This document shows, in pieces, positions 11,854-60,140 of a stretch of DNA of 64,000 bases (positions are counted from its first letter, which is position 1; each line of letters starts with the position of its first letter). The notes under the pieces were generated by a model. It was not told where the DNA came from. It saw only the letters and a list, made by a program, of their open reading frames with translations, and ran no database searches. Source of the DNA: a virus. Location of the stretch: IMG/VR virus record IMGVR_UViG_3300017917_003637, positions 1 to 64,000 of that record; one strand, 5' to 3'. The position numbers and the translations under genes were made by a program.

Positions 11854-12825
11854 ATGATAAAATTGTTAGAACTTTACAATGGGTTGTTAGAATCCAAGGC
11901 AACCGAAGCTCAAGGCCTTAACATACTTAAGAAGGCTGGTGTAGAGAATGCTGATGGTGTTATGTCAGAATTTAAATCAGCTGATGCTAGCAACAATCAA
12001 AAGAATCTTCCAATCATGGCTTATTTGTATGCCAATGGGTATAAAGACATTCGCAACATAACTAGTGTTGTTAATGACTATAATCAGTTGGAAAAGATGG
12101 GGAAGGTTAAGACCATACAATTAACCAAACAAGGTATTGTGATGGGTGATACCATTTATAATGACTTTATAAAGTTTTCTGAGTTTATTGATGGCAAGAT
12201 GAATGAATTAAACAGGGCTAACCAAATAAAATCCAATGTTGCTGCTGATTTCAAGGCTGAGAAGAAGCCGATATGGAGTGGCAATGGCATTGACATATAT
12301 GATGGGTTGGGTGTTGGTAAGTGTATTTCATATACTCAAGGTGCGTTGACTGGTAAGGCTTATTCTTTTTGTATTGGTCAACCTGCTAACACGATGTATC
12401 AATCGTATAGGGATACCCAGACATCAACGTTTTATTTTATTGTGGATAGAAATCATTTTGCTGAGGACCCAGATGGTAGTGTTAATTTGGATGACCCTTT
12501 GCATATTGTTGTATTTGACAATACTCAGCATGGTGTTGAATTGACCGATGCTAATAATACAACTGGTATAATAGCTGAGCCGTTTGGTGATGACCCTAAC
12601 AAGTATGTTGAGTATTTGGAATCTAAGGGGGTTCCTGTTAATAAGTTGTTGGTGAATAAGCCTAAGACTGATGATGAGAGAAAAGAGGATGAGATGTTGG
12701 GTCAAAGGAATAGTAGTCTTGAATGGTTTATTAAATTGCCAATGGATTATAAGAGCAAGTATATTGGTAGGGGTCATGTGTTGACCAACGACCAATTTGA
12801 TTATTTAATGAGAGGTGATAAATAA
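11854..12825 (+). CDS. PcfJ-related Cys-motif domain protein, putative virion cargo
   Basis: KCISY...SFCIG...MYQSYR...FYFIVD block shared with 18069 and 26696; N-terminus ends in LLE. Confidence 0.55.
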   Translation: MIKLLELYNGLLESKATEAQGLNILKKAGVENADGVMSEFKSADASNNQKNLPIMAYLYANGYKDIRNITSVVNDYNQLEKMGKVKTIQLTKQGIVMGDTIYNDFIKFSEFIDGKMNELNRANQIKSNVAADFKAEKKPIWSGNGIDIYDGLGVGKCISYTQGALTGKAYSFCIGQPANTMYQSYRDTQTSTFYFIVDRNHFAEDPDGSVNLDDPLHIVVFDNTQHGVELTDANNTTGIIAEPFGDDPNKYVEYLESKGVPVNKLLVNKPKTDDERKEDEMLGQRNSSLEWFIKLPMDYKSKYIGRGHVLTNDQFDYLMRGDK

Positions 12826-12828
12826 AAG

Positions 12829-13443
12829 ATGAACAATAGGGATTTAATTAGACAATATGTTGACACTGGTTTACAGTTACCAAAATATCAAGTCATGCAA
12901 TTATCTGGCGCTGATAAAAAAACTTATATACGTAAACGACTTATTGCAACTAAGGATTCTATTGATATGTTTCGTTTAATGTCTTATGAAATTGATTTGA
13001 TGGATTCTGAAAATAAGGATAAGTATTATGAAAAATTATTTAAAGAAAACCTTAATTCAAACACTATAACGACTTTTAGAGTAATGGATAAATTTTTCTT
13101 TGAATTAAGTGATGAGATTAAATCAAAATTTTTGGATACAGTAATTGATAAAGGTATAATGTTACCTTCACATTATTTTAATGACTTACCGTTTACCGAT
13201 AAACTTAAATATTTAAAATGGAATGCTAGTCTTCCTTTAAGCAAACACACGATTTATGATGTTTTTAAATATTTAATTGAAGAGTTAAAAATATATTATA
13301 TTAAAAATTTAATAAAATATCATGGTGAAAATATATTAAACCACGATAGTATTCGATGGAAAATTGCAAACCACCAAGATACAATATATTTAGATTTTTT
13401 AAACATTATTAAAAAGTACAATTTAATTAAAGATGAACAATAG
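12829..13443 (+). CDS. helical repeat protein, paralog of 13433
   Basis: First ~37 aa nearly identical to the 13433 product (MNNRDLIRQYVDTG..P.YQ..QLS.ADKKTY.RK). Confidence 0.75.
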   Translation: MNNRDLIRQYVDTGLQLPKYQVMQLSGADKKTYIRKRLIATKDSIDMFRLMSYEIDLMDSENKDKYYEKLFKENLNSNTITTFRVMDKFFFELSDEIKSKFLDTVIDKGIMLPSHYFNDLPFTDKLKYLKWNASLPLSKHTIYDVFKYLIEELKIYYIKNLIKYHGENILNHDSIRWKIANHQDTIYLDFLNIIKKYNLIKDEQ

Positions 13444-14245
13444 GGATTTAATAAGACAATATGTTGACACTGGTGTGGGTATCCCTGAATATCAGTTTAA
13501 TCAGTTATCTGCTGCTGATAAGAAGACGTACTTGCGTAAGATAGAGATAGGGATTAAATATAATAGTAGTAAAGTTAAATATTACTATGCTGTTTTACCA
13601 GAAGAGTCTCAATTATATCTTGTTAATCAGGATAATTCAAAAATAGAATACATAAAAGAACCAACTGAGAAAGTTCAGTTAGTAGCAGTTAGAAAATCTG
13701 GTTACGCAATAAAATACATAAAAAATCCAAGTGAAGACGTTAAATTAGCAGCAGTTAGACATTGTGGTAATGCAATAAAGTACATACAAAATCCAAGTGA
13801 AGAAGTTCAGTTAGCAGCAGTTAAAGAATATGGTCTCACAATACAATACATAAAAAATCCAAGTGAAGAAGTTCAGTTAGCAGCATTTAGAGAAAATAGT
13901 CATGCAATAAAATACATACAAAATCCAACTGAGAAAGTTCAGTTAGTAGCAGTTAAAAAATATGGTCTCGCAATACAACACATAAAAGAACCAACTGAGA
14001 GAGTTATGTTAGCAGCAGTTAGAGAAAATAGTGATGCAATAAAATACATAAAAAATCCAAGTGAAGAACTTCAGTTGGAAGCGGTTAGACAAAATGGTTA
14101 CTCAATAAAATACATACAAAATCCAAGTGAAGAAGTTCAGTTAGCAGCTATTAATAACGACATTGATTCATTATTATTCATAAAAAACCCAAGCAAAGAA
14201 GTTAAGGTTTTATATAAAAAATTATATTATAAAAATTTAAGATAA
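13433..14245 (+). CDS. DUF4116-like 22-aa tandem repeat protein
   Basis: About 8.5 copies of IKYIKNPSEEVQLAAVxxxGxA (66-bp DNA repeats). Confidence 0.75.
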   Translation: MNNRDLIRQYVDTGVGIPEYQFNQLSAADKKTYLRKIEIGIKYNSSKVKYYYAVLPEESQLYLVNQDNSKIEYIKEPTEKVQLVAVRKSGYAIKYIKNPSEDVKLAAVRHCGNAIKYIQNPSEEVQLAAVKEYGLTIQYIKNPSEEVQLAAFRENSHAIKYIQNPTEKVQLVAVKKYGLAIQHIKEPTERVMLAAVRENSDAIKYIKNPSEELQLEAVRQNGYSIKYIQNPSEEVQLAAINNDIDSLLFIKNPSKEVKVLYKKLYYKNLR

Positions 14246-15879
14246 TGAATACAAGCATACGCAATATACTTAGAGAGGGTCTAATTCTAGAGGCCTCAAA
14301 GAAACAAATCCTTATAGACAAGTTAGGGTTTGACGAAAACTCAGCTAGCATACTTGATAGACTATGTGGTCCGTTGAGTGTTTGGATGGGCAACAAGATA
14401 CTTGATTATAATAGGTTAATGACAAGTAGACCTAATGATACTAGAACTCCAGAGGAAATAAAGACCAACATTATTGTAATGTCAAGATTATTTGTTAATA
14501 ATAATCGTCAAAACATTACATCTATTATGGACTGGGTTCGTGTTGGTCTTAATGGTAACTTAGGTCCTAACAAGGAATTAAGCTTTGGTAAATTATATGA
14601 AGCTTCTCAAAAGTGGCATGATGAATTGGAAGTTGGGTCAGGAGACGTCAACTATGTTGAGGAGAATCCTGTTATACTTGACTTTAGACAACCTGATGGC
14701 ACAGGATATTATTGGGCTGACTTAGAAACGAACAATTCCAAAGAGGAATGTGAGCGTATGGGTCATTGTGGTCGTAGTGGTGCTGGTATGATTTATTCGC
14801 TTAGACAAGTAATACAATTAAATGATAAGTATAAGCTTAACAAGTCTGTGTTGACTGCTGCTATTGGTACCAACGGTATTATATATCAGATGAAGGGTGG
14901 TAAGAATAGCAAGCCTGAGGCCAAGTATCATCAGTATATTTATCCATTGTTATTCTTAAAGAACGGTGATGATTATTTTATCAAAGGTTTTGGTAGTGAA
15001 TACGATAGTGCTAGTGACTTTAAGTTAACTGATTTTAGTGATGATGTTATTGGTGAGATATTTGCTAAGCGTCCTGAGTTGTTTAACAAAAGAGCTCTTA
15101 AGAAGAAATTATTTAAATTGGGTCTTATTGACAAGTTACCAGAGGAATACATATCGCTTGAGATTGCTCCTGATAGGGTTGATAGATATGTTGATGGTGA
15201 TTACACGGTCAGCAAGCGTACCATAAAGACTCCAGCTGGTGGTGAAAGAACCGTTGATGTTGGTTTATTTGAACTCATATTGGCTGGTGAAACATGGGAC
15301 TTGTGGGATAATTATGATGCGGATTGGAAAGCGGCTTTGCAGTATCATGCTGACAGTGATAGTGAGGCTAGAATTCGTGAGATATTGGTGGCCATGGCTG
15401 CTAAGAATGGTGTTGAGATTGATGAAGATTTATCGTTGGAAGATATGATAGAGGAATATGATGAGAATGAAGAGATTATCGAAGCTTTGAAAAGGGCTAC
15501 TGACGATGCTGAGTCTGATGCTTATGCTGATGATATATACAAGACATTAAAGAGCGCTCTTGAGGAATTGGGTGGTGTTGAGAGAATGGATGACACTGGT
15601 GTCGTATTGAGGGTTAATATGGGTCATTATTTGGATGAATTGGAGGATGATGTTTATGAAGAGATTTCTGACAGATGCGACGATGATTTGCCATGTATGT
15701 TTAATGAGATGATTGGTGAGTGGATTGATAAGCCTGATTTCAGATTTAATGACAGTTATTATTACCCAAATGTTAACGACGAATACTTCAATGAGTTATT
15801 GCAAGAAAGACTTGATGAGATTAGACTTGATGAGGGCAAAGTAATGATTAAGAATATGTTAAGAGAGAGATTTAGATAA
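14245..15879 (+). CDS. PcfJ-like domain protein with acidic C-terminal half, putative virion cargo
   Basis: EECERMGHCG...IYSLR...QMKGGKNSKP; IRNILRE tag at the N-terminus and IKNMLRE at the C-terminus. Confidence 0.6.
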   Translation: MNTSIRNILREGLILEASKKQILIDKLGFDENSASILDRLCGPLSVWMGNKILDYNRLMTSRPNDTRTPEEIKTNIIVMSRLFVNNNRQNITSIMDWVRVGLNGNLGPNKELSFGKLYEASQKWHDELEVGSGDVNYVEENPVILDFRQPDGTGYYWADLETNNSKEECERMGHCGRSGAGMIYSLRQVIQLNDKYKLNKSVLTAAIGTNGIIYQMKGGKNSKPEAKYHQYIYPLLFLKNGDDYFIKGFGSEYDSASDFKLTDFSDDVIGEIFAKRPELFNKRALKKKLFKLGLIDKLPEEYISLEIAPDRVDRYVDGDYTVSKRTIKTPAGGERTVDVGLFELILAGETWDLWDNYDADWKAALQYHADSDSEARIREILVAMAAKNGVEIDEDLSLEDMIEEYDENEEIIEALKRATDDAESDAYADDIYKTLKSALEELGGVERMDDTGVVLRVNMGHYLDELEDDVYEEISDRCDDDLPCMFNEMIGEWIDKPDFRFNDSYYYPNVNDEYFNELLQERLDEIRLDEGKVMIKNMLRERFR

Positions 15880-15912: not shown

Positions 15913-17427
15913 TTATAGTATAAATCTTTTTCTAAGTGATTCTTTAATGTCTTCTTTTTGTTGAATTTGTTTAAATTCTTTTTCGATTCCAAGTCTCTTA
16001 GCAATTTCTTCTGGTGTGATGTGTGAGCCGTGAGTTGGTGAACCCATGCTTTCATCCATTTCTTGATGTTTGTTAAGTCTTGTGTTAACGTAATCGATAA
16101 GGAAGTTAACCATTTTAGATACTGTATCAAATACTGTTACCATATTTTCTGGGTTTCCACCCCACATGATTGTGTAGTTAAGACTTGTTGTTTTAAGGTC
16201 AAAGCCAAACGCGTACATAAACATCCATGCTGATATTTCTGCTTGTTGTTCGACGGTTTGGTTTCCATCACCTTCTCTTCCGACGAAGAAATCAATCTTG
16301 CCCTTAGACTTAAGATAGGTTTGGTGTAGGAGTTCGTGAGATATTTCGTGAGCAAATGTTTTGGTTGTACCAACATCGTTTCCTTCGTTTGCAAGCAATG
16401 TGATTTTTCCATTCTTAGAAACACCTCTTGCACCACCTAAGTCATCAGAAAAATCAACATGTATTCCGTGTTCGTCGCAAAATTCTAGAAGTGACATATA
16501 AATTGGTCTAACTGAATCGTCAATCATTCCTTCTTCAAACCATTTAACTTTTTTGATATCATCTTGAGCTCCAGTTATGAAATCTTCTTTGCCTTCCATT
16601 TGAACGGTTTGTGATACGTCGTATGCTGGAACAAGTTCAAATGCTGATGCTAGCATTGGTGGTCTTAATTTTGTTTTAAGTCTTATTTTTTCGTTTGGTG
16701 ACAAAGCGTCAACTGATGATTTTTTCAAAGAAGCCAAAAAGTCTTTGGTTATTTGTTCTTTTTTGTCTTTTGAATAACTATATTGTTTTCCTTTGGGTCT
16801 CCAAACTAGAATTGGCTTCGCGTCTGGTTTGATAGTTCTGTTGTAGTCTTCTCTCCAGATTTCTTTGTTATTTACGATGGTTGCATCTGGCATTTGTATC
16901 CAAATAAGCAATGTATTGGTTGGTGTGTATTTATAACCTAACGCGCCTCTAAATCTAAGAAACTTTGACATTGTATCTTTGAATTGTTCATCGTCTTGAA
17001 TGTTTGTTATTTGTTTTTTGAACAATAACAATTTGGTTTCAATTTCATCCTTTTGAAGTTGTGTTACTTTGACTTCAGGGTCAGAGGTATCAACCTCTGC
17101 TGAGTTTAAGAAATCAAGGATTTTATCTATTTCAAATTCAATCTTAGCAGCAGCTTCATCAGAACTTTGAATGCTTTTGATGAACTCCATGGCTGGTTTT
17201 ATATATTTGTTGATTGTTTTTTGTGGGTCTTCTTTATCAAGCCACCAATAATAATACTTTTCTTTGAAATTGTATTTCATATTGAAAGAATCTTGAAGAC
17301 GTTGTCCTATGCTTTTGTCGATAAAGCCTTTTAGCTTTGCAATTGGGTATTCACCTAAATTAGATTTAACTAATCTAATTTCTACTTCTGATAACATATT
17401 TTTCATTATATTGGTCATTTTACTCAT
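15913..17427 (-). CDS. ArdC-like ssDNA-binding domain plus zincin metallopeptidase (polyvalent-protein type)
   Basis: YTPTNTLLIWIQMPDAT...W...NRTIK...ILVWRP and YDVSQT (ArdC-N); AHEISHELLH...EQQAE (HExxH plus E). Confidence 0.8.
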   Translation of the reverse strand: MSKMTNIMKNMLSEVEIRLVKSNLGEYPIAKLKGFIDKSIGQRLQDSFNMKYNFKEKYYYWWLDKEDPQKTINKYIKPAMEFIKSIQSSDEAAAKIEFEIDKILDFLNSAEVDTSDPEVKVTQLQKDEIETKLLLFKKQITNIQDDEQFKDTMSKFLRFRGALGYKYTPTNTLLIWIQMPDATIVNNKEIWREDYNRTIKPDAKPILVWRPKGKQYSYSKDKKEQITKDFLASLKKSSVDALSPNEKIRLKTKLRPPMLASAFELVPAYDVSQTVQMEGKEDFITGAQDDIKKVKWFEEGMIDDSVRPIYMSLLEFCDEHGIHVDFSDDLGGARGVSKNGKITLLANEGNDVGTTKTFAHEISHELLHQTYLKSKGKIDFFVGREGDGNQTVEQQAEISAWMFMYAFGFDLKTTSLNYTIMWGGNPENMVTVFDTVSKMVNFLIDYVNTRLNKHQEMDESMGSPTHGSHITPEEIAKRLGIEKEFKQIQQKEDIKESLRKRFIL

Positions 17428-17462
17428 AAATATTATATTTATGGTTAAAAGACTTTATAGTT

Positions 17463-20338: not shown

Positions 20339-21571
20339 ATGGGAAGACAAATTAACAAAGAAAAAGTCCTTGAAGAAAAGGGTGAGGTTAAACAATACAC
20401 CTTATTTAATGAGCATAAATCTCAAAAATTAAATTGGTTGTTAGATGTGTATAAAAAGGACCCTTACAAAGCGCGAGTTTTATATTTTAACAACATTGGT
20501 TCTTTTTATATTGAGCGAAGTGTTTGTTTTGAAAGAACTGATGGTAGTTTTGAAATCTGCCGTTTTAAAAGAACTTTTGGGATGACAAAAACCAATCGAA
20601 TTTATTCTAGGGAAAAGAAGTTAACTTCTTTGATTTATAAGAATAAAAAGTTTTATTTTAAAAACGGTTCATCTATTAAGCATGCTATGTATCATGATAT
20701 CTTAAATCATTTTAGTTTTGCTAAACATTTTTTACTAGAAAAATTTCCATGGCTTAGAAACATAGCAGAGAATAAATATTGTCACAACGTTTCGTTATCG
20801 TCAATTTTGACTTATAAATTATTCAACGCTGATAAGGTTTTGAAACATTTATATAAAGCACCAACATCGGTTATCAAAACGTTGACTACTGAGTATGAAA
20901 AAAGGACTAGTAGCCATGGTTATATTTCAAAATTTGAGTGGAAAAGAATTAGTCCATATTTAATAAACATTGAAAATTTGAAAATAGAACATTTCACAAA
21001 TTATTTGTTTAGGGATACCATTGAAATGGCTATTAAATTAGATAAGAAGGTTAATTGTTCATGGTCTGAGAAAAGACTTAAACTTGAACACGATACGTGG
21101 GCCAAAGAGCTTAGAAAAATCATGCTTGAGTTCGAACCGTTAATTCAATTAAATCCTCATAAAATATTTGAAGATTTTGAACAATTTACTGGATACAAGA
21201 TGCTAAGAACCAACCATGAATTAATCGAGGAAGGTCATAAACAAGACCATTGTGTTGCTGGTTATGGTGGTTCAATTTCCTCTGGTCGTTCTGGGATTTA
21301 TCAAGTTAGTGGATACACACTTGAGGTTAGTTATAGAGAAGATTATGGTATCGGTACCAACTTAAATAACAAGAAAAGATTACACTATTCTCAACTTAGA
21401 GGTTTCCGTAATTGTTCGGCACCAATGGTATTGGATAACACTGTTAAAAGTTATATCCAAGCATTTAACGATAAGTATGATTTTGATGATTATGAAAAAT
21501 ACTTAAGAGAAAATAAGGTTGGTCTTAAAACTGTAGTTGAAGAGATTAACAGATATGAATTACCATTTTAA
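20339..21571 (+). CDS. PcfJ-like domain protein
   Basis: ELIEEGHKQDHCVAGY...SGIY...TLEV...QLRGFRN; host-type promoter at 20281. Confidence 0.8.
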   Translation: MGRQINKEKVLEEKGEVKQYTLFNEHKSQKLNWLLDVYKKDPYKARVLYFNNIGSFYIERSVCFERTDGSFEICRFKRTFGMTKTNRIYSREKKLTSLIYKNKKFYFKNGSSIKHAMYHDILNHFSFAKHFLLEKFPWLRNIAENKYCHNVSLSSILTYKLFNADKVLKHLYKAPTSVIKTLTTEYEKRTSSHGYISKFEWKRISPYLINIENLKIEHFTNYLFRDTIEMAIKLDKKVNCSWSEKRLKLEHDTWAKELRKIMLEFEPLIQLNPHKIFEDFEQFTGYKMLRTNHELIEEGHKQDHCVAGYGGSISSGRSGIYQVSGYTLEVSYREDYGIGTNLNNKKRLHYSQLRGFRNCSAPMVLDNTVKSYIQAFNDKYDFDDYEKYLRENKVGLKTVVEEINRYELPF

Positions 21572-21611: not shown

Positions 21612-22562
21612 TTATTTTTTAATCTTTACACAATTAGGATATTTTTTCCCAAACATAGTTTTCATGCCTTTTTGTGTGTAACCAGTCCAACACCTTTCGT
21701 TGATTTCTTCTTTGTTTTCTTGTATTGACATTATTTGGTCGTATGACTTAGAATTGATATCGTTAAGTAGTTCCATAAATGGTGTTCTTCTAAGAACCTT
21801 AAATACTAGGTTTTCTAATGAGAACTCACCACCACTTTCAAGGCCGCTCTTACGATACTTTTTAATCTTATCCTTAAGTTCTTGTGATTTGTCAAGAGCC
21901 TTTTGATAATCACCGTCGGCATATATTTTTTTCACGTCTTTAAGTTTATCGATGAACGCTAGCGCTTTTTTCTTAATGACATTTCTATTTAACTTGAATT
22001 TTTCTTTTTCTGGTTTAAGAATCCATTTATTTCTTTTTACAGAGTACACAGCGTTGGCTGAGAGTGTTTCTTTAATGTCTTGCAGATACAATTCAACATC
22101 GTATCCTTTGATGGTTATGTCATGGTTTTTATTCCATAGATTTTTGTATGAGTCAAAGAGTTGTTTTATAAATTCTTCTTTGGTATCTATGGTGTCAAAA
22201 TCAACAATCACATGTAAGTCAATATCTGAGTATTTTGACCAATTGTAGTTGGCAAGGCTGCCAGTGAATATTACATCTTTGATTACAAGGTTTTCTGGGC
22301 TATTTAAGCCATCAAAAAATTCTTCAGCTATCTTCATTAGTTGTTCGCGAATATCGTTGTTTAAAACTTCTCTATCCCAGAATTCTGGGTTAAGTGAAGG
22401 TTTAAGTTGAAAACTATCCAGAACTTCTTTTGGGATTTTTAAATCCTTGGTAATTGTGGTATCCAATGAATTAGCTGCCTCATCCAATTCATCAAGTTTT
22501 TCTGATGCTGGTGTGAGGTTATAATTTTCTATGATGATATTTTTTTTGAAAAATAATTTCAT
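21612..22562 (-). CDS. Pol-beta superfamily nucleotidyltransferase
   Basis: FTGSLANYNWSKYSDIDLH (GS...DxD) and later VELY; C-terminal CWTGY..KG.K....PNCV module after INE. Confidence 0.85.
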   Translation of the reverse strand: MKLFFKKNIIIENYNLTPASEKLDELDEAANSLDTTITKDLKIPKEVLDSFQLKPSLNPEFWDREVLNNDIREQLMKIAEEFFDGLNSPENLVIKDVIFTGSLANYNWSKYSDIDLHVIVDFDTIDTKEEFIKQLFDSYKNLWNKNHDITIKGYDVELYLQDIKETLSANAVYSVKRNKWILKPEKEKFKLNRNVIKKKALAFIDKLKDVKKIYADGDYQKALDKSQELKDKIKKYRKSGLESGGEFSLENLVFKVLRRTPFMELLNDINSKSYDQIMSIQENKEEINERCWTGYTQKGMKTMFGKKYPNCVKIKK

Positions 22563-25412: not shown

Positions 25413-25486
25413 TTTTTTTTAGTTATGTTATTGTAAAAAGGGTTCGGTTTTCCGAACCTTTTTTGTTTTACAAAATATTTATAGAT

Positions 25487-25828
25487 ATGAAAAAGAAATT
25501 AATAATTACAGAATCTCAATTTAAAAACGTTAAGGCTATTTTAGCTGAGAATACCATGCATGCCAGAATGGTAAAAGAGATGAAAGATTTTTTAGATGCA
25601 AACTATACACCCACCGAAAACTACGTTCGCGAGGGTGGAGAGTATTTTGGGAAAACTATGTTTAAGGTTAACGCTGATGAAGAATTGATTTCAGCTAAAC
25701 AGTTGTATGAATACATGCAATACAAATTTGGTCTTGGTGAGGCGTTTACGCAGCAAGTCATCAAGGATTGGGTATCTGGAAAGATTGGTGAAGATTATAT
25801 GTTATCTAAACATGTACCAATGAGATAA
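25487..25828 (+). CDS. hypothetical protein (MKKKLIITESQ N-terminus)
   Basis: ATG at 25487 just after ATATTTAT. Confidence 0.7.
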   Translation: MKKKLIITESQFKNVKAILAENTMHARMVKEMKDFLDANYTPTENYVREGGEYFGKTMFKVNADEELISAKQLYEYMQYKFGLGEAFTQQVIKDWVSGKIGEDYMLSKHVPMR

Positions 25829-30369: not shown

Positions 30370-31011
30370 TTATTTTATTCTTTTAGCGATTATTTGTACA
30401 GTACAAATTACGTTATTTTTACCCTTGTCGAATTTAACATCAACCACATCAAATTCAAACTCTATTGAATCTAAATTAAGAGCTGAAGCTATTTGTACTT
30501 TGGCTTTATTTATAGCTAAGTCTTTTGCCATTTCTTTGGTTGGACCATCTGTTTTAGCAATTGATGTAAATGACCCGTCAGCGTTTTTGGTTACACCAAT
30601 TTTATGTAATTTTTCAATCTTATATGGGTTTTTATTCATAGCATGCATATTTGGGGATGCCAATGTTGAAGCAGCCATGCCCAATGTACCGAGTGTTCTA
30701 GCAAGACTACCCTCTTCAATTTCCTCTCTAAGAAGTCTTTGGATTAATTGTCTTTGAGATTCTTTTACGGTTTCAAATTCTTTTTCAGCATCTTTTTCCA
30801 TTTTAATGAGTCTGTCGTAGTAATCTGGAAATTCTGTAATATGGTCCATAGCGATTTCAGTGGCTCTTTCTTTGTCATCAGTATGTTCCAATTCAATCTT
30901 AACCCCTTTTTTTATTTGAGCTTCTATTTTATCAACAGACACTTTGAATTTATCTGCTATGTCTTTTACCGTCATTTTGTCGGCTTTTCCGCCTTTGATT
31001 GTGTTTTTCAT
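30370..31011 (-). CDS. DUF5661-like domain protein with internal IQRLLRE tag
   Basis: KGVKIELEHTDD...EIAMDHITEFPDYYDRL; ATG at 31011 preferred. Confidence 0.7.
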   Translation of the reverse strand: MKNTIKGGKADKMTVKDIADKFKVSVDKIEAQIKKGVKIELEHTDDKERATEIAMDHITEFPDYYDRLIKMEKDAEKEFETVKESQRQLIQRLLREEIEEGSLARTLGTLGMAASTLASPNMHAMNKNPYKIEKLHKIGVTKNADGSFTSIAKTDGPTKEMAKDLAINKAKVQIASALNLDSIEFEFDVVDVKFDKGKNNVICTVQIIAKRIK

Positions 31012-31013
31012 AA

Positions 31014-31421: not shown

Positions 31422-31484
31422 TATTATAGTTTTACTATAAATATTGTTTAAAATAAAAAAACCCACTTTCGTGGGCTTTTTATG

Positions 31485-33989: not shown

Positions 33990-34081
33990 ACTTGGTTTAT
34001 TTTTTGCAAATATACTAAATTATTTTTAAAAAGCAATATTGATTTTTACAATAATTATTCGTATATTTGTATAAAAACAAT

Positions 34082-49746: not shown

Positions 49747-51807
49747 ATGGCAAAAGAAAATTTAACAATATTTCAAAGGTTAAACAGAGTTGTTAACCCT
49801 AATTACAATCCACCACAAAAACAAACCACACAACGTTTTAATTTGGGTGGTGGTGAGTTGCTTAAGACTACAAGCAAAGCTGAATATGAATCGGCTAAAT
49901 TACAAGCACAACAAAATAAATACTTACAAAGCACATGGAAACGAGTTGAAAACGGTTTGTTTCAACAATCAATAAATTATGAAACAACTCGTGTTGGTTC
50001 TTATTCTGATTTTGAAGCCATGGAGTTTTACCCGACAATTGCTGCTGCGTTGGATGTGATGATGGAGGAATCTACCACGGTAAACGATAGAGGTAGAGTG
50101 CTTAATATTTATTCAGATAGCAAGCGTGTTAAGGGTATTCTTGAGGATTTATTTTTTAACAGACTAGATTTACACACTACGTTACCAATGTGGGTTAGAA
50201 ACACATGTAAATATGGTGATAATTTTGTCTACTTAAATATCAATGATAGACAAGGTATTGTATCCGCAAAACAAATGCCTAACTATGAAATGGAGCGTAG
50301 AGAAGCTGGGTTATATGATTTGGTTAGTGGTAGAGAATATTCTGATAACCAAGATGAAAATAAAGACAGAGTAAAATTCTATTGGAGAGGTCGTGATATT
50401 GAATTTAACTCATGGCAAATCGCCCATTTCCGTTTGTTAGGCGATGATAGACGTTTACCATACGGTACCTCGGTGTTAGAAAAAGCAAGACGTATTTGGA
50501 AACAACTTATCTTATCTGAAGACTCTATGCTTGTATATCGTGTAACTAGAGCACCAGAAAGACGTGTATATAAAATATATGTTGGTAACATTGATGATGC
50601 TGACGTTGAACAATACGTGAACGCGATTGCTGATAGATTTAAGCGTATGCCAATTATTGACCCTCAAACTGGACAAATTGACTTGAGATATAACCAATTA
50701 TCAAACGACCAAGATTTCTTTATCCCAGTTAGAGATGAGAGCGCTCCGAATCCAATTGATACGTTACCAGGTGCTGCCAATTTGGACCAAATTGCAGATA
50801 TTCAATACTTACAAGGTAACTTATTTACTGCTTTGCGTGTTCCTAAACCATTCTTAGGTTTTGAAGAAGCAACTGGTGAAGGGAAAAATCTTGCTTTGCA
50901 AGATATACGTTTTTCTAGAACCATAAACCGTATTCAACAATCTATGCTTCAAGAGTTAAACAAGATAGCAATTATTCATTTGTTTATTCTTGGATTTGAA
51001 GAAGATTTAGATAATTTTACGCTTACACTTAATAATCCATCAACACAAGCGGAAATGCTTAAAGTTGAACACATGCAAACCAAAGTTACTCTTGTTAAAG
51101 ATTCTGTTACTGATATCGGAAATGGTTTTGGTGTTATGTCTTGGACCAGAGCTCACAGAGAAATATTGGGTTGGTCTGACGATGAAATCAAACAAGACTT
51201 ACTTGAACAACGTATGGAGAAAGCCGCTGCTGCTGAATTACAAAATACAGCCGCAGTTATTAAACATACTGGTATGTTTGATGCCGTTGATAAAATATAC
51301 GGTGATTACCAAGCCGCTCTTAAAGGCGCTGAAGGTGGTGAAGCCGCTGGCGGAGAAGCTGGTGGCGGAGGCGGAGGCTTCGGCGGTGGTGGTCTAGGTG
51401 GTGAAGATTTAGACTTTGGAGCTGAGGGTGGTGCTGAAGGTGGTGAAGAAGCTGCTGGTGGTGAAGAAGCTGCTGGTTTTGGAGGTGAAGCTGGTGCCGC
51501 TCCTGAGGCTGGTGCCGCTCCTGAGGCTGGTGCAACACCTGAAGCTGGTGGTGAAACACCAGAAGGTTTAGCTGAATCACTTAAAAAAACTGAAAAAGTC
51601 TTAACAGAAAGAAAAGAATACTTGGCTAAAAAGTTAAATGAAAGGAACCAAAAATATCAAAAAAGATTTGTTGATGTATTGGTGGAATCTGTTAAGGAAA
51701 AAAACGGAAATGAAGATGTTAGTGTTAAAATATATGACAAGAACGTTAAAATTAACGAAGACGTTAACAATATGATAAATGACATAAATAAAATGTTGGA
51801 TGAATAA
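49747..51807 (+). CDS. gp20: portal protein (T4 gp20-like)
   Basis: EDSMLVYRVTRAPERRVYKIYVGN, DFFIPVR, IDTLPG, ALRVPK. Confidence 0.93.
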   Translation: MAKENLTIFQRLNRVVNPNYNPPQKQTTQRFNLGGGELLKTTSKAEYESAKLQAQQNKYLQSTWKRVENGLFQQSINYETTRVGSYSDFEAMEFYPTIAAALDVMMEESTTVNDRGRVLNIYSDSKRVKGILEDLFFNRLDLHTTLPMWVRNTCKYGDNFVYLNINDRQGIVSAKQMPNYEMERREAGLYDLVSGREYSDNQDENKDRVKFYWRGRDIEFNSWQIAHFRLLGDDRRLPYGTSVLEKARRIWKQLILSEDSMLVYRVTRAPERRVYKIYVGNIDDADVEQYVNAIADRFKRMPIIDPQTGQIDLRYNQLSNDQDFFIPVRDESAPNPIDTLPGAANLDQIADIQYLQGNLFTALRVPKPFLGFEEATGEGKNLALQDIRFSRTINRIQQSMLQELNKIAIIHLFILGFEEDLDNFTLTLNNPSTQAEMLKVEHMQTKVTLVKDSVTDIGNGFGVMSWTRAHREILGWSDDEIKQDLLEQRMEKAAAAELQNTAAVIKHTGMFDAVDKIYGDYQAALKGAEGGEAAGGEAGGGGGGFGGGGLGGEDLDFGAEGGAEGGEEAAGGEEAAGFGGEAGAAPEAGAAPEAGATPEAGGETPEGLAESLKKTEKVLTERKEYLAKKLNERNQKYQKRFVDVLVESVKEKNGNEDVSVKIYDKNVKINEDVNNMINDINKMLDE

Positions 51808-53787: not shown

Positions 53788-54513
53788 ATGGATATAAATT
53801 ATAAAGACTTTAGAATACTTAAGAGAGGTGAATCTGGTTGGGGTGGCCTTATTGAGCACGATGCTGGGTATATTAGCCCAGATGAACCTAGAAACCAACC
53901 ATTCATCAACGAAATCAAAAAACTAGACGGTGGCAGCAAATTAGCCATAGTCGAGCCGTTAATCGTATATGTAGTACTTCAAAAATACGGAATCCTTAAT
54001 CGTAACGGTAGGGTATATCCAGAATCAGTATTAAAAAAACAAGTTAATCTTTATCAAGAAGCAATTCGTGAGCGTAGAGCGGTTGGTGAATTAGACCACC
54101 CAGAATCTTCAATTATTGCTGGTGATAGAATTTCACATAATATTATTGAAACTTGGTGGGAAGGACAAACCCTTATGGGTAAGATGGAAATCCTTATGAC
54201 TCCAGGTTTTATAAACTATGGTATTGTATCAACTAAGGGTGATGAGGTTGCAAACTTATTGAGAAACAGAATCAAGATTGGAGTTTCTTCTAGAGGTGTT
54301 GGTTCGCTTAAAGAAGGTAAAAACGGAGAACAAATAGTACAAGATGATTTTGAAATTATTTGTTGGGATGTGGTTACAGCACCTTCAACTCCAGATGCTT
54401 GGATTGGCCGTAGCGCTGAAGAAATGAAGCCATATGTTGAAAACACTGAAGTTAAAAAACCAATTATCAAAGAAACACTTAAGGATAACTTAGATAAATT
54501 TTTAGCTGATTAA
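53788..54513 (+). CDS. gp21: prohead core protease (T4 gp21-like)
   Basis: NRNGRVYP, GELDHP, GVSSRGVGS, WDVVTAPSTPDA. Confidence 0.93.
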   Translation: MDINYKDFRILKRGESGWGGLIEHDAGYISPDEPRNQPFINEIKKLDGGSKLAIVEPLIVYVVLQKYGILNRNGRVYPESVLKKQVNLYQEAIRERRAVGELDHPESSIIAGDRISHNIIETWWEGQTLMGKMEILMTPGFINYGIVSTKGDEVANLLRNRIKIGVSSRGVGSLKEGKNGEQIVQDDFEIICWDVVTAPSTPDAWIGRSAEEMKPYVENTEVKKPIIKETLKDNLDKFLAD

Positions 54514-54633: not shown

Positions 54634-55890
54634 ATGGCAGATAAAAAATCAATACTTGAAGAAGCCCTTTTGGATATCAATCATATTCAAAATGCTCTTA
54701 ATGCTAATACCAAAGAAATACTTCGTTCGGTAGCGAAAGAAGAAATTAACGGTGTTGTGAAAGAGTCTCTAGAAGAAGAGATTTACGAAGAAGAAGAAGT
54801 AGAGGAAACTATGGATGAAGCTACTGAAGAAGTAGAAGAAACTATGGATGAATCTATGGAAGAAATTGAAGAAGGTTATATGGAAGAAGAAGGTGACCTT
54901 GAAGAAGGCGACCTTGAAGAAGAAAGCATGGATGAAGACATGGATGAACTTGATATGACTGACGCATCAGATGATGAAGTTATTGCTATCTACAAAAAAA
55001 TGAGTGGTGATGATGAAATCGAAATTGTAGGCGATGAATTACGCTTAAACATTTCAGAACCAGGTGAATACGTTGTTAAACTTAACGGCGCTGACGAAAT
55101 GGGTGACGAAGACATGGAAGATGAATTAGAATTGGAACCAGCTGACGATATTATGGGTGGTGACGATGAAGAAGACATGGACATGGATATTGAAGATACC
55201 GATGAAGAAGGTGACGAAGAAGATTTTGACTACGAAATCGAAATGGATGACGAGGAAGACATGGGCGACGAAGAAGACGACATGGAAGATGAAGAATCTA
55301 TGGATGACGAAGAAATGGGTGACGAAGAAGAGGAAGAAGAAATTGAAGAATCTTTGGGATACACAAGAGGTTATGCTGGTAGACAAGGCGCTAGAAAAAA
55401 TGGTGCTGCTCACTTACCAAAACCTAAATCTGAAAGTGTAAATGAAACAATCGCTGCAAAAAAATTAGTTTCTGAAACAGCTAAAAAATATAATGCTTTA
55501 TTAACTGAAGCAACTAAACTTAAAGCTGAGAATAATGAATTCAGAGCAGCTCTTAAAGAGTTTAGAACAAAATTGGTAGAAACTGTAGTTTTCAATAGCA
55601 ATTTAACTTACGTAACTAAATTGTTTATGGAACACTCAACAACCAAAGGTGAAAAAGATTCAATCCTTAAAAGATTTGATGATGTAACTAGCCTTAAAGA
55701 ATCAAAAAAACTTTATAAAACTATTGCTAACGAATTGGAGTCTAGAAAACCAATTTCAGAATCAGTAGAAAATAAAATCATTAAAGAAGCTACTAGTGGT
55801 GTATCAAAACAAATTGTAGAAAGCACCGCTTATGTAGACCCTTCAACAAAGAGAATCATGGATTTGATTAACAGAGTTGAAAGAAGATAA
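54634..55890 (+). CDS. prohead scaffold/core protein (gp22-like)
   Basis: Very acidic, many L/I/M-x-E sites, lies between protease and capsid genes. Confidence 0.8.
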   Translation: MADKKSILEEALLDINHIQNALNANTKEILRSVAKEEINGVVKESLEEEIYEEEEVEETMDEATEEVEETMDESMEEIEEGYMEEEGDLEEGDLEEESMDEDMDELDMTDASDDEVIAIYKKMSGDDEIEIVGDELRLNISEPGEYVVKLNGADEMGDEDMEDELELEPADDIMGGDDEEDMDMDIEDTDEEGDEEDFDYEIEMDDEEDMGDEEDDMEDEESMDDEEMGDEEEEEEIEESLGYTRGYAGRQGARKNGAAHLPKPKSESVNETIAAKKLVSETAKKYNALLTEATKLKAENNEFRAALKEFRTKLVETVVFNSNLTYVTKLFMEHSTTKGEKDSILKRFDDVTSLKESKKLYKTIANELESRKPISESVENKIIKEATSGVSKQIVESTAYVDPSTKRIMDLINRVERR

Positions 55891-55925: not shown

Positions 55926-57785
55926 ATGTCACATTTATTGACTTCAGGACAAGTTGGTAACATCGGATTAAACCACATGAAGGCTATCCGTTTGGAAACC
56001 CAACAAAAATGGGACTCTTTAGGATTCTTAGATGGTCTTAAAGGTCACGTTAAAGAAAATATTGCTCAGTTATATGAAAACCAAGCTTCAAACTTGTTAA
56101 CTGAGGCAACTAACGCTACATCATCTGGTTCTTTCGAGACTGTAGTATTCCCAATCGTAAGAAGAGTTTTCTCAAAATTATTAGCTAACGACGTAGTATC
56201 TGTACAAGCTATGAACATGCCAATTGGTAAATTGTTCTACTTTGTGCCTCTTACTTCAGAGCGTGTAAACGCTGCTGGTCAAGGTGGTGACCCATATGCT
56301 ACAACTGCATCTAGTGATGTTTGGTCTACTAACCCAGTATACTCTGCTCACACTTCAATGGGTAACGAAGGTATTCCATCATGTGTTAAAGCTGCTGGTA
56401 GTACTTGTACTGTAACTCCATTTGCTGCTAAAAACTTGTACGATATATTCTACAACGATGGTTTATTCGATAACTCAAAAGGTACTCTTACAATTAAGAC
56501 TGCTAGCCCACTAGGTGTTTACACTTTAGGTACTGACGGTGCTTTCAGTATTGTAACTGGTACTGGTACTACTTTACCTACAGCTGCTGACGGTTCTGTT
56601 AGAAGCGTAATTGTTGCTCTTTCTGGTTTCTCAGGTGGTGCAGGTTCTAACGGTAGAGAAGTGTTGACAGGTCCTGATGGAAACAACATGGATACTGAAT
56701 CATTCTTAGCGTCTCTTCACGTAATCGCTGGTTCTACATTGTTAGACGCAGATGGTAACGCTGTTGTTGCTATCAACAAAGAAGTTCCATTCCGTCTTGT
56801 TACTCAAAGATACGGTGTTGGTATCGTTTCTGGTCCTAACGTTGTAACTGATGGTAACGGTGTATGTTGGTTAGAGTTAGATTTGACTCACCCAGTTGGT
56901 ACTTCTGCTACTGCTGGTGCATCTTACCCAGGTACTGCAACTTATGATGGTTATGTAGGTGTTTCTGCAACAACATTCCCTTCATTCTCAGGTTTCAGTG
57001 CTGCATGGGCTGAATACGCAACATTAGAGTTCGAAACAGAAATGGGTGAAGTATCATTCAGACTTGATGAAGTTGTTGTTTCTGTAGAAGAAAGAAAATT
57101 AAGAGCTACTTGGTCTCCAGAGTTAGCACAAGACGTTAGTGCATTCCACAACATCGATGCTGAAGCTGAGTTGACAGCTATGTTGTCAGAACAAGTTGCT
57201 GCTGAGATTGACCGTGAAATCCTTAGAGATTTACGTAAAGCTGCTGCATGGCAATTGCGTTGGGACTACAACGGATGGAGAAAAACTTCAACTGCTGCTC
57301 AACCATATACTCAAAAAGAGTGGAACCAAACTTTAATTACTAAAGTTAACCAAATTTCTGCTCAAATCCATAAATCTACACTTAGAGGTGGTGCTAACTT
57401 CATCGTTGTATCTTCAGAGATTTCTGCAATCTTCGACGACTTAGAATACTTCCACGTGTCAGACGCTAACCCTGAGCAAGACCAATACAACATGGGTATT
57501 GAGAGAATCGGTTCATTAGGTGGTAGATATCAAGTATATCGTGACCCATATGCACCAGCATACTCAATCATCATCGGTCACAAAGGTAAATCATTATTGG
57601 ACACTGGTTACATCTACGCTCCGTATGTACCATTACAGTTGACTCCAACAATGTATAACCCATTCAACTTTGCTCCAGTGAAAGGTATCATGACTCGTTA
57701 CGCTAAAAAAGTGGTTAACAACAGATTCTATGGTCACTTGAGAGTTGATGGTGTACAAACCTTCAACATCAATGAATTAAGATAA
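55926..57785 (+). CDS. gp23: major capsid protein (T4 gp23-like)
   Basis: VQAMNMPIG, RKLRATWSPELAQD, AEIDREI, YAPYVPL, GIMTRYA. Confidence 0.95.
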   Translation: MSHLLTSGQVGNIGLNHMKAIRLETQQKWDSLGFLDGLKGHVKENIAQLYENQASNLLTEATNATSSGSFETVVFPIVRRVFSKLLANDVVSVQAMNMPIGKLFYFVPLTSERVNAAGQGGDPYATTASSDVWSTNPVYSAHTSMGNEGIPSCVKAAGSTCTVTPFAAKNLYDIFYNDGLFDNSKGTLTIKTASPLGVYTLGTDGAFSIVTGTGTTLPTAADGSVRSVIVALSGFSGGAGSNGREVLTGPDGNNMDTESFLASLHVIAGSTLLDADGNAVVAINKEVPFRLVTQRYGVGIVSGPNVVTDGNGVCWLELDLTHPVGTSATAGASYPGTATYDGYVGVSATTFPSFSGFSAAWAEYATLEFETEMGEVSFRLDEVVVSVEERKLRATWSPELAQDVSAFHNIDAEAELTAMLSEQVAAEIDREILRDLRKAAAWQLRWDYNGWRKTSTAAQPYTQKEWNQTLITKVNQISAQIHKSTLRGGANFIVVSSEISAIFDDLEYFHVSDANPEQDQYNMGIERIGSLGGRYQVYRDPYAPAYSIIIGHKGKSLLDTGYIYAPYVPLQLTPTMYNPFNFAPVKGIMTRYAKKVVNNRFYGHLRVDGVQTFNINELR

Positions 57786-57807
57786 TCTAATCTTATATAA
57801 ACTTAAA

Positions 57808-57834: not shown

Positions 57835-57856
57835 ATTTTATGAAATATTTATAGAT

Positions 57857-58636
57857 ATGAAAGAATTTATAAAAAAACTACTTAGAGAAGGGTTAGAAGA
57901 ATTAACACCTGAGGAATTGGAACAAATAAATGTGATAGTTAATAGGGAAATGATTCAAGCCAAAGAACGAATAGAAGAATTAAAACACGAGTTAGATACA
58001 ACTCATAAGGTGTTGGATTCAATATTAACAGCCATGGCTAGTGGTAAACTTGAAGGTGTTCCTACTGATTATGTTTTAAATATGAAAAAAGAAAAAGAGA
58101 ATAGAATTCATCAATTAGAAACATACATAAACAATTGGGAAAAAACCGATAGACAAGAAATCTTTAATAGAGTTTCCACTCAGTACTTAGCTAACAAAAA
58201 ATACGAACAAGAAAGACGTAAGGCTAGAGAGTCTAGAACATTTGGTAAAGAAGACATCATAAATTTATTTGTAGACGCTTTAGAGGGTGGTTCTAACTAT
58301 TGGTATGAAATACGTCATTTACCTAAAGAAGTTCGATATAAAGCAAACGAAATGGGTGAATCGGTATCTGAAGCCATAGGTGAATATATTCTTCAAGGTG
58401 GTTATGTTCAATTTTATGATGCTGAGGAAGAATATGACGACGATGATTATCAAGAAAAATATTCTGATAAAGGATTATTGGGTACAGTTGATATGAACTC
58501 AATACTGGAAGCAATAACAATAATAAAAAAAGATTACCCAGAAGTTTGGGAAAATATACTTGATGAGCAATATGATGCTAACGATGCTGATATATTTTTA
58601 CAGTTGTGTGTAATGGGTGAAGTGGTATTTGGATAA
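57857..58636 (+). CDS. hypothetical protein with IKKLLRE tag
   Basis: ATATTTAT at 57845; coiled coil then an ALEGGSNYW domain. Confidence 0.75.
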   Translation: MKEFIKKLLREGLEELTPEELEQINVIVNREMIQAKERIEELKHELDTTHKVLDSILTAMASGKLEGVPTDYVLNMKKEKENRIHQLETYINNWEKTDRQEIFNRVSTQYLANKKYEQERRKARESRTFGKEDIINLFVDALEGGSNYWYEIRHLPKEVRYKANEMGESVSEAIGEYILQGGYVQFYDAEEEYDDDDYQEKYSDKGLLGTVDMNSILEAITIIKKDYPEVWENILDEQYDANDADIFLQLCVMGEVVFG

Positions 58637-58641
58637 ATAAT

Positions 58642-58666
58642 AAAAGGGCCTAAGTTAGGCCCTTTT
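58642..58666. terminator. bidirectional terminator
   Basis: AAAAGGGCCTAA-G-TTAGGCCCTTTT. Confidence 0.8.
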
Positions 58667-58695
58667 AATTTATATACGTTAACATGTTTAATTAT

Positions 58696-59655
58696 TTATG
58701 CTTTTGTGCCGCAGTGACCGCAAAATTTGTGGTCTTTATGTAGTTTGGCACCACAGTTAGTACAATATACTTTAACTTTGATATCTTCGGCTGTGTTTAT
58801 TTTTTGAGATACTGGAAGCAATTTAGCTTCTACAGTATGAAACGCAAACCATTCAAAGTCTTTGTTTACTGTTTTGAATTTTTGGTCAGAATGTGAACCT
58901 TCTTCAACTCTACCAGTTTCTATGGATTTAGACCTCTTAGCTTTTAGGTTTTTAGTTGGTTCTGGGATTGAAAGACTATCAAAAGTAACTTCACCAGATA
59001 CGTTGCTAATAGTTGCCGATGCATTATAAAACGCGCTGGTAGAAATATCATTAGAAAAACTACTTCCTAATAAACCAGTTGTTGAATAAGTATCACCAAT
59101 TGATGCTGTGCTAGTTGTAAATGTATCACACAATGGTGTGTTAGGTGCTGTACTTGAATTGTTAACATAACCACCAGAAATTGGGCTATCGTAACGGATA
59201 ATACCTTGGTCACGATTTGGACCACCCCAAACATCTCTACCTCTAGTTAAACTACCAAATGTTAAAATTGGGTTTCTTGGTCTTGGTTTTGATTCTCGAT
59301 AGAATTGAACCTTGAAGTCACCGTTGTTAGCTATTGCTTCGCGAACTTCTTGAGTATTAGAAACTTCATAGGTGTCAAACATAAATTTTTTGGCAACATC
59401 TAAGTATCTGTCTAGAAACACACGTTGACCTGGGTTCAATACAAGACCGCCTTGTGAAATTTCGTTTCCGTTTAGTGTGATTTTAGCGAGAATAGTGTCC
59501 GTAGTTGGATTGAAAAGCTCAATCTGGAACTCTTGCCCTTTTTGTAAGTAATAAGTCGGCATATCGCCTTTTTTGTTGTAAACTTTAAGTCTACTCTTGT
59601 TCACAGCAATGTTTGCTGTTGGCGCCTTTGGCGCCACATAGTTTAATTGTTTCAT
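58696..59655 (-). CDS. beta-sandwich-like protein with Ser/Thr linker and C-terminal zinc ribbon
   Basis: C-terminal CTNCG...FCGHCG; long structured 5' leader. Confidence 0.75.
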   Translation of the reverse strand: MKQLNYVAPKAPTANIAVNKSRLKVYNKKGDMPTYYLQKGQEFQIELFNPTTDTILAKITLNGNEISQGGLVLNPGQRVFLDRYLDVAKKFMFDTYEVSNTQEVREAIANNGDFKVQFYRESKPRPRNPILTFGSLTRGRDVWGGPNRDQGIIRYDSPISGGYVNNSSTAPNTPLCDTFTTSTASIGDTYSTTGLLGSSFSNDISTSAFYNASATISNVSGEVTFDSLSIPEPTKNLKAKRSKSIETGRVEEGSHSDQKFKTVNKDFEWFAFHTVEAKLLPVSQKINTAEDIKVKVYCTNCGAKLHKDHKFCGHCGTKA

Positions 59656-59686
59656 TTTAATTAACTTTTTAATTCTTGTTATTAAT

Positions 59687-59762
59687 GTACCAATTTCTTT
59701 GTTGCCTAGACAACTCTAAAGCCTTATAAGACTCGAAACCAATACGGAGTTAACGTATATAA
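59687..59762 (-). promoter_or_regulatory. candidate structured 5' leader (three-way junction)
   Basis: On the sense strand GUAUUGGUUUC pairs with GAAAUUGGUAC and encloses two hairpins. Confidence 0.5.
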
Positions 59763-59801
59763 TATAAATATAGTAAAACTAATTTTATTTGTCAAGTGTT
59801 T

Positions 59802-60140
59802 TTATTGAAAATCTGAACCCAATTCACACAACGTTGATTGAATCTGATGCCAATAGGTGTCAGCTTGGTCTGGCATTGAATCTCCAGACATTTTTGATTT
59901 TTTAATTTGACCACTTATTTGATTCTGTTGGTGTCTTAAATTTTCTAACGGGGTGTGGATAACTTTCATTACTTTGTGTACTGTTTGTTCATCCATTCCT
60001 TTTAAAGCACCATTGACATACATCATAGCTTCTTCATAACTATCAATAGTCATTTTATTACACAATGTTTCCATTGTTTGATTCATTTCTTGACCATCAA
60101 TAAGTTGTTCTCTAAGCAATTTTTTTATAAAACTTTTCAT
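59802..60140 (-). CDS. hypothetical protein with IKKLLRE tag
   Basis: Coupled to the upstream structural gene. Confidence 0.7.
   Translation of the reverse strand: MKSFIKKLLREQLIDGQEMNQTMETLCNKMTIDSYEEAMMYVNGALKGMDEQTVHKVMKVIHTPLENLRHQQNQISGQIKKSKMSGDSMPDQADTYWHQIQSTLCELGSDFQ

Follow-up and report, generated by a model that had tools for sequence, protein, structure and literature searches.

A shared N-terminal peptide on unrelated proteins of uncultured T4-like jumbo phages as a probable capsid-targeting propeptide

Tagged genes and head genes of the window

We examined the first 64 kb (64,000 nucleotides, the whole stretch analysed, hereafter the window) of the 86.8-kb viral contig IMGVR_UViG_3300017917_003637, in which several genes for otherwise dissimilar proteins begin with one short peptide, here called the tag. 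An earlier note on this DNA had proposed that the tag is a portable signal that loads diverse enzymes into the phage head for delivery with the DNA. The contig is ~26% complete (CheckV) and has a G+C content of ~33%. Megablast gave no match to any close named phage, and among named phages the capsid protein had its top matches, all at 38-40% identity, in Flavobacterium phage immuto, a Microcystis phage and an uncultured phage of 484 kb. In IMG/VR we found many relatives, with proteases 81-96% identical and contigs of up to 368 kb, including a 362-kb record rated 100% complete with 504 open reading frames (ORFs), referred to as G003. Because no close named phage was recovered and large IMG/VR relatives are numerous, the sequences place the clade among uncultured T4-like jumbo phages, and its hosts are most likely Bacteroidota.

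The tagged genes, the other copies of the tag and the T4-type head genes are collected in Table 1, where genes are named by their first coding position. All the N-termini quoted in the earlier note were recovered, including the C-terminal IKNMLRE of the 14245 product and the internal IQRLLRE. Over the window contig and its relatives the consensus was M-K-x-[FIL]-I-K-K-L-L-R-E, followed by [GNQES]-[LIM]-[IL].

Table 1. Positions of tagged genes, further leaders and head genes in the window; a slash marks the end of a leader or candidate cut site.
Feature	Position	Strand	Details
Cargo gene, 544 aa	14245-15879	+	Tag MNTSIRNILRE at 14245-14277
C-terminal tag-like IKNMLRE of the 14245 product	15847-15867	+	Residues 535-541 of 544, three codons before the stop
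Cargo gene, 200 aa	17463-18065	+	MKNIIKQLLRE; ATATTTAT directly upstream (17435-17442)
Cargo gene, 726 aa	18069-20249	+	MKDIIKKLLKE; second gene of the 17463 unit
Cargo gene, 107 aa	25834-26157	+	MDLKPKIRQILRE; second gene of the 25487 unit
Minimal zincin, 135 aa	31014-31421	-	MSKGFIKQLLRE; HELVH at 85; ATATTTAT upstream (31437-31444)
Cargo gene, 259 aa	57857-58636	+	MKEFIKKLLRE; first gene past the capsid gene; ATATTTAT at 57845-57852
Small helical protein, 112 aa	59802-60140	-	MKSFIKKLLRE; the 467-aa gene 60140-61543(-) has its stop overlapping this start
ArdC/IrrE-like zincin, 504 aa	15913-17427	-	HEISH at 360; weak leader MSKMTNIMKNMLSE
Internal IQRLLRE	30724-30744	-	In the DUF5661 protein 30370-31047(-), past the Pfam domain
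Second leader type	25487-25828	+	MKKKLIITESQFKNVKAILAE; ATATTTAT ends 4 nt before ATG
Third leader type, 13 residues	11854-12825	+	MIKLLELYNGLLE/SKATE; kept in one relative
Terminase	47667-49433		T4-type head module
Portal, gp20-like, T4-type	49747-51807	+	Pfam Portal_T4, 5.9e-74
Prohead protease, gp21-like, Peptidase_S77	53788-54513	+	Pfam 3.6e-26, PHROG 2.5e-42
Acidic scaffold-like protein, 418 aa	54634-55890	+	N-terminus MADKKSILEE/ALL; conserved LLTE/A at 55498-55509
Major capsid protein, gp23-like	55926-57785	+	Conserved LLTE/A at 56094-56105 (residues 57-60)

The gp21-like protease aligned with T4 gp21 (5JBL) at 1.3e-16 and contained the GELDHP and GVSSRG motifs. A gp21-type (S77) protease, a T4-type portal and a T4-type capsid protein are all encoded here, the head genes expected alongside a T4-type capsid-targeting sequence (CTS). 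The S77 protease was also present in two of four further tag-bearing contigs; the other two are ~53% complete fragments, so its lack there is uninformative.

Pfam and PDB sequence searches on the cargo of the window returned almost nothing, and Pfam on ten long tagged proteins from relatives returned a single GNAT only; the recognisable enzymes among the tagged families are this GNAT and two zincins, and the rest are nearly all orphans. The Atlas neighbours of the 18069 product were viral DUF4116-type clusters. The pair 25487/25834 is conserved in G003 (246013 and 245685), and the tagged family of 59802-60140 is present in most related loci. Not all the cargo named in the earlier note stood up. 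The putative ArdC-type metallopeptidase (15913-17427) takes its label from a HExxH motif and matches to phrog_87 (1.8e-6) and phrog_7245 (1.7e-5), with no Pfam match below 0.02 and no PDB sequence match; its leader is degenerate, missing from the homologues in relatives L222 and L223 (MANEIKLF...) and present as ...VNIMKKTLNE/VEI in L221. Read from Met4, the leader of the window gene becomes MTNIMKNMLSE, 11 residues in register with the tag; that this Met4 is the start of a tag is speculation from the sequence. The PcfJ-like cargo was not recovered as such, the sole Pfam PcfJ match being 20339-21571, which has no tag, and the 14245 product having only a weak Atlas lead (a cluster with PcfJ in 26% of its members). 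Besides 20339-21571, the untagged genes lying among the tagged ones include a nucleotidyltransferase with a weak SidM-N match (21612-22562(-)) and a leucine-rich-repeat protein (26696-28090).

Occurrence, spread and context of the tag

We searched the strict motif [IL][KR][KQN][LMI]L[RK]E in the 116 ORFs (26,856 aa) of the whole contig and detected eight matches. Seven of them began at residues 5-7 (binomial P = 1.8e-10, such positions making up 3.0% of the total), and the eighth lay three residues ahead of the C-terminus of the 14245 product. When all N-terminal 14-mers were compared with one another without a preset motif, the tag again came out as the main cluster, with 18 pairs scoring 26 or above versus 1 in a control segment (residues 32-45). 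None of the 22 plus-strand ORFs of the early region (145-11352) had the tag, which bears out the earlier statement that early genes are free of it, and the motif was not equally frequent in early genes or at internal positions. The broader N-terminal pattern hydrophobic-hydrophobic-x-E was only mildly enriched, being found in 2 of the 22 early genes and in 22 of the 94 others (8 of these are tags), with 9.5% expected. The shared tag is real and far beyond chance.

In 80 loci of relatives around the protease gene, a relaxed motif was found at 40 N-termini and 12 internal sites, and BLAST of the tagged proteins of these loci and of the window contig, once stripped of the tag, gave 23 clusters unrelated to one another. 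A degenerate DNA pattern for the tag gave 22 matches in four related records (4-8 in each) and 0 for the reversed control; 19 of the 20 matches examined were at residues 2-9 from the closest in-frame ATG. An IMG/VR scan with the pattern ATG-K-x-x-I-K-x-L-L-R-E recovered at least 118 stretches. Among the matches listed, at least 124 distinct complete tagged ORFs of relatives' loci formed at least 44 unrelated clusters; 110 of the 124 had no in-frame ATG upstream, and they held 111 distinct 33-nt versions of the tag with codon usage near the genome average. In G003 the tag family was the largest N-terminal cluster, with 14 members. The claim that the tag sits on proteins without other similarity is therefore borne out by the 23 and at least 44 clusters, which also rule out paralogy of the tagged proteins. 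As with a CTS, a short peptide at the extreme N-terminus is what unrelated proteins have in common, and it mostly extends exactly 11 aa from the initiator Met. In the contig, too, the tag codons vary synonymously from gene to gene, and because of this the conserved unit is the peptide, selection acting on it and not on DNA or RNA; a nucleotide-level signal was rejected on the same grounds. A literature search for the tag string found no paper.

The zincin 31014-31421 allowed the tag to be followed within one family. Its close homologues kept the tag in 112 of 120 cases, in 92 of them exactly 11 residues from Met, and the tag was retained at 45-50% identity of the body. HMMER with the tag-less body recovered 2,492 relatives, with the domain alone or within proteins of up to 1,427 aa. 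Some distant stand-alone zincins start straight at the domain (e.g. P0170, P0172, P0242), and others have the canonical tag (P0131, P0146) or variants of it (MKEIIKALLTE, MRTEIRKILKE). The AlphaFold model of the zincin (pLDDT 83) resembled minigluzincins, IrrE, Wss1 and ArdC protease domains (Foldseek E 2e-3 and worse). In two AlphaFold models the tag formed a helix with pLDDT near or below 50, followed by a poorly defined linker and a confident body; despite the low pLDDT, the tag was the most conserved stretch in the alignments of both proteins. Since distant zincin homologues occur without it, the tag is an add-on, an independent module separate from the fold of the cargo, and its low pLDDT together with its high conservation fits a peptide that would bind a partner in trans.

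The motif ATATTTAT occurred at 28 sites in the contig, 20 of them in sense orientation and no more than 61 nt upstream of a gene, and the genes behind it include terL, 51851, the protease, the scaffold, 37705 and 40421; from this context it is predicted to be a late-promoter-like motif. The gene at 37705-40125 codes for an 806-aa protein with seven DUF285 repeats and a weak PKD match, probably a fibre or surface-binding protein. Among the tagged genes, 17463, 31421 and 57857 stand directly behind ATATTTAT, and 18069, 25834 and 60140 are second in such a unit. The earlier note had placed all tagged genes in units headed by ATATTTAT; the linkage is direct for 17463/18069, 25487/25834, 31421, 57857 and 61543/60140, loose for 14245, which belongs to a unit headed by 11854 with GTATTTAT there, and at 17427(-) the motif overlaps the first ATG. 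In the relatives, ATATTTAT lay within 60 nt of 65 of the 124 tagged ORFs among the matches listed. At 25475-25489 and 57845-57859 the motif ends 4 nt before ATG (ATATTTATAGAT-ATG), and because of this spacing the mRNAs of 25487 and 57857, predicted to be late, may have no leader or almost none.

Between the capsid gene and the conserved 467-aa gene, the relatives have a hypervariable stretch, and at least one tagged gene was present in it in 27 of 53 loci, with tag variants such as MKSFIKKRIRE and MKLSEIFDELLE/A. This post-capsid island resembles the polymorphic ip loci of T-even phages. In related loci (e.g. L004, L005 and L011) it also holds proteins with lipoprotein or signal-peptide-like N-termini (MKKIFLLITLF...SQT), as well as a conserved family whose members are ~300 aa long and have the motif VPTANIAVNKSR; the window member of this family (58696-59655) has a C-terminal zinc ribbon.

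Several other features of the window were observed. At 600-10,300 (+) there are ~20 early genes, each preceded by a Bacteroidota-type promoter (TAnnTTTGCA) and, immediately ahead of ATG, by a AACCAATTAAAT leader that is nearly the same in all; Shine-Dalgarno sequences are absent. The adjacent paralogues 12829-13443 and 13433-14245 have identical first 14 residues (MNNRDLIRQYVDTG), one of them with DUF4116, and relatives have three tandem copies (L220). The gene 31485-33989(-), with an early-type promoter upstream, codes for a ClpB/ClpA-like double-AAA+ protein (Clp_N, AAA, AAA_2, ClpB_D2-small). It adjoins the tagged zincin gene in the window. Five relatives have it conserved as well, and a tag match adjoins it in at least three of these; in G003 it is in two pieces ~2.8 kb apart.

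Candidate cut sites, module junctions and further leaders

The earlier observation of a gp21 homologue together with LLTE/A at residue 60 of the capsid protein was confirmed. The site (...NQASNLLTE/ATNAT...) lies 12 residues ahead of the segment that aligns with mature T4 gp23, and residues 57-60 read LL[TSN]E in 31 distinct capsid proteins of relatives (LIAE in one), with a variable next residue (A, S, G, T, N). The scaffold-like protein has a conserved KKYNxLLTE/A (LLTE/A at 292), and its N-terminus, MA[DE]KKSILEE/ALL, resembles the tag. The tag ends in L-L-R-E, the same L-L-x-E as in the capsid and scaffold sites. Its other conserved positions (M1, K2, hydrophobic 4, I5, K6 and K7) are missing from those two sites, and this points to a tag that would hold more than a cut site.

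We also found copies of the tag away from N-termini. In the 14245 homologues of L222 and L223, the N-terminal tag is retained together with a C-terminal FIKNMLRE/NFK. In L220 (6001-8202) a 14245-like ORF continues in frame, via RVKNMLRE/NFVTEE, into the homologue of 17463; this relative is without the ArdC-like gene that in the window sits, oppositely oriented, between 14245 and 17463. In L221 (2077-4200) a 14245-like ORF continues via IKNILRE/NF into another module. G003 has an internal copy, FLIKTLLRE/NLLPE, at residue 124 of the 310-residue product of 33067-33999, and a C-terminal one, ILIKRLIKE/NLNK-stop, in 241037-241345. IQRLLRE in the DUF5661 protein is a possible internal cut site; for the portion of that protein downstream of the motif, no stand-alone homologue turned up in a local search. 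Because copies lie at in-frame module junctions, the tag marks such junctions as well, which fits a polyprotein cut site and suggests that cassettes recombine at tag sequences.

The products of 25487 and 11854, described before as looser versions of the tag, turned out to have separate leader types. The second type, M-x-KK-L-I-I-T-E-x-Q-[YF]...L-x-E, is ~21 aa long and has two hydrophobic-hydrophobic-x-E sites; a regex search of G003 gave five N-terminal copies (72141, 140375, 145125, 147946 and 246013), on proteins of 112-833 aa, and at most one internal copy. The third type has the pattern MIK[LI][LF]E[LI]Y..LLE/SKATE, and the L220 homologue of 11854 has MIKIFEIYQRLLE/SKATE behind ATATTTAT. 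In Flavobacterium phage immuto (MW353176) we found another shared leader, MENFDLKKFLVE/NKLT..LLKE, on 1803, 117587 and 118588, with a looser form on 125197; three of these four genes are beside or within the head module. Because immuto has its own shared leader and its capsid protein has QIVSE/A, with an IVSE/A site, it agrees with lineage-specific tags that would follow the same logic. As a cultured distant relative, immuto could serve as an experimental model for such tags.

Interpretation and comparison with known systems

We consider that the tag is probably a T4-type capsid-targeting propeptide, removed by the gp21-like prohead protease. The tagged proteins would be made late, and during prohead formation the basic amphipathic helix of the tag would dock the cargo onto the acidic scaffolding core. 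After closure of the shell, the S77 protease would cut after the Glu of the tag (L-L-x-E/), as it would also do in the capsid protein (residue 60) and in the scaffold (292). The cargo released in this way would remain in the head and exit with the DNA at the next infection, and an internal motif at a module junction would act as a cut site splitting a polyprotein. Binding to the core, cleavage, packaging and ejection are all steps that we infer. A more far-reaching version is a clade-wide programmable loading code, by which any protein starting with MKxFIKKLLRE would be packed and injected, and the DNA of the tag would act as a joint for swapping, fusing or splitting cargo; this is a tentative idea, and we doubt it more than we favour it.

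Several points weigh against the capsid-targeting reading. Proteome-wide, L-L-x-E was observed 22 times versus 15.3 +/- 3.9 in shuffles, an excess that is not significant, and the specificity of the protease for L-L-x-E is assumed by analogy. In the capsid protein the whole N-terminal region is conserved, so a conserved LLTE is not in itself proof of a cut site. Cutting at the C-terminal copies (14245; 241037-241345 of G003) would free 3-4 residues only, and these copies may be remnants of recombination. A basic amphipathic helix could serve other purposes, the support for targeting in this clade is in silico, and there is no cultured close relative, with named-phage capsid matches of 38-40% at best.

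The internal and C-terminal copies at module junctions, and the L-L-x-E common to the tag, the capsid and the scaffold, would also be expected if the motif were only a substrate site of the prohead protease or of another one (for zymogen activation or polyprotein cutting), with no role in sorting; the proteins would then enter the head by another route or stay out of it. We think this unlikely, given that seven conserved tag positions upstream of P4 are missing from the capsid and scaffold sites, that the tag mostly extends exactly 11 residues from the initiator Met, and that sorting in T4 is the task of the N-terminal part of the CTS (PMC9026906). The basic and amphipathic character of the tag would equally suit an address other than the capsid, such as a membrane-binding helix, a degron or handle for the ClpB-like AAA+ protein, or the leader for a modifying enzyme, and the ClpB-like gene is conserved in the clade and adjoins the tagged zincin gene. 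Such an address leaves the L-L-x-E match with capsid and scaffold, the late-promoter context and the capsid-adjacent hot spot unexplained, and the linkage to ClpB is one gene pair only; we judge it decidedly unlikely. Among these variants the leader of a radical-SAM maturase was rejected: PF04055 was absent from the contig and four relatives (including the complete 362-kb one), and 14 of 14 control genomes were positive.

The shared 5' coding DNA, promoter and first codons together, could instead be a joint for recombination or the boundary of a cassette, spreading with shuffled genes and coding for a functionless peptide, as the hypervariable post-capsid island, the tag remnants at the 3' ends of genes and the fusions exactly at tags would allow. 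We hold this to be very unlikely as the sole explanation in view of the 111 distinct 33-nt versions with ordinary synonymous codon use among the matches listed, and of the persistence of the tag at 45-50% identity of the zincin body; recombination at the tags may well act alongside targeting. The region coding for the tag could also be a translation-initiation enhancer for mRNAs without Shine-Dalgarno sequences or without a leader, and the lack of Shine-Dalgarno sequences, the A-rich first codons and the position of ATATTTAT 4 nt before ATG in 25487 and 57857 are in line with it. However, operon-internal tagged genes have the tag too, structural genes with the same promoters are without it, and amino acids rather than nucleotides are conserved through the Leu-Leu-Arg-Glu codons; we find this explanation scarcely credible, the least probable of all those considered.

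If the tag is a capsid-targeting propeptide, one short motif would identify, from sequence alone, the proteins injected by a large group of uncultured freshwater and environmental jumbo phages, and the tag would be a handle for loading foreign proteins into the heads of Bacteroidota phages. Proteins injected in the first wave, of which T4 IPI, IPIII and Alt are examples, typically act in counter-defence or host takeover. Should the programmable code hold as well, the tag alone would list the whole injected proteome of the clade, mostly orphans that would likely be new counter-defence factors.

The closest known system is that of phage T4, where the CTS of IPI, IPII, IPIII and Alt is reportedly removed by the gp21 prohead protease (Mullaney & Black 1996). 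The role of this CTS is established (PMC9026906, PMC3012670, PMC5694885): entry of the protein into the core is governed by its N-terminal part, and cleavage by gp21 is governed by residues 8 and 10 (PMC9026906), and the internal proteins have only the CTS in common (PMC3012670). T4 IPII and IPIII begin with MKTYQEFIAE/A and IPI with MKTFKEFTSTTTPVSTITE/A. Like the leader of IPII and IPIII, the tag starts with MK, has a bulky hydrophobic residue in position 4 and ends in hydrophobic-hydrophobic-x-E before a small residue. In both systems a short N-terminal peptide (10-19 aa) is the sole common part of unrelated proteins, the head genes are of the gp20, gp21 and gp23 types, and the cargo genes are polymorphic between relatives. 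MKxFIKKLLRE and MKTYQEFIAE have, however, no demonstrable homology, and because the peptides are too short to infer it, we propose from their sequences that the tag works like a CTS and do not claim descent from that of T4. The present system also differs in its Bacteroidota host phylum, its occurrence in uncultured jumbo phages, its at least 44 unrelated families with cargo of up to 726 aa and two zincins, the copies at internal module junctions and the coexistence of two or more further leader types, and it is known from sequence alone. The earlier description of this cargo as broader than the small internal proteins of T4 overlooked Alt, a T4 enzyme that is packaged via a cleaved propeptide and processed at both ends (PMC5694885, PMC9026906).

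In the giant phages phiKZ, 201phi2-1 and SPN3US, ejection and inner-body proteins have long N-terminal propeptides (PMC5694885, PMC7411985). As predicted here, a gp21-related prohead protease cuts after Glu, and sorting of proteins into the head is the supposed role of the propeptides; gp53 and gp54 of SPN3US, as with the shared tag, have identical N-termini, there on diverged paralogues. Those propeptides are mostly >100 residues long, have an A/S/G-x-E motif and belong to largely paralogous families, whereas here a fixed 11-mer stands on unrelated proteins. In the polyvalent proteins known from phages and conjugative elements, zincin, ArdC-like and GNAT modules are among the effectors presumed to reach the host together with the DNA (Iyer et al. 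2017, PMC5512222). The effector modules, zincins among them, are alike, and the zincin domain here also occurs in multidomain proteins of up to 1,427 aa; polyvalent modules are fused in one giant protein, while ours are mostly separate tagged genes with occasional fusions at tags. The cargo-loading peptides of encapsulins are usually C-terminal, bind the shell protein and are not removed, and neither protease nor DNA is involved. They share with the tag a short portable peptide, unrelated enzymes and an HK97-fold shell, loading being a prediction in our case. Capsid targeting as such was already known from T4 in the 1990s, and reviews on that phage suggest its generality among T4-like phages; what is new here is the uncultured Bacteroidota jumbo clade, the larger and mostly orphan set of cargo, and the copies of the tag at module junctions.

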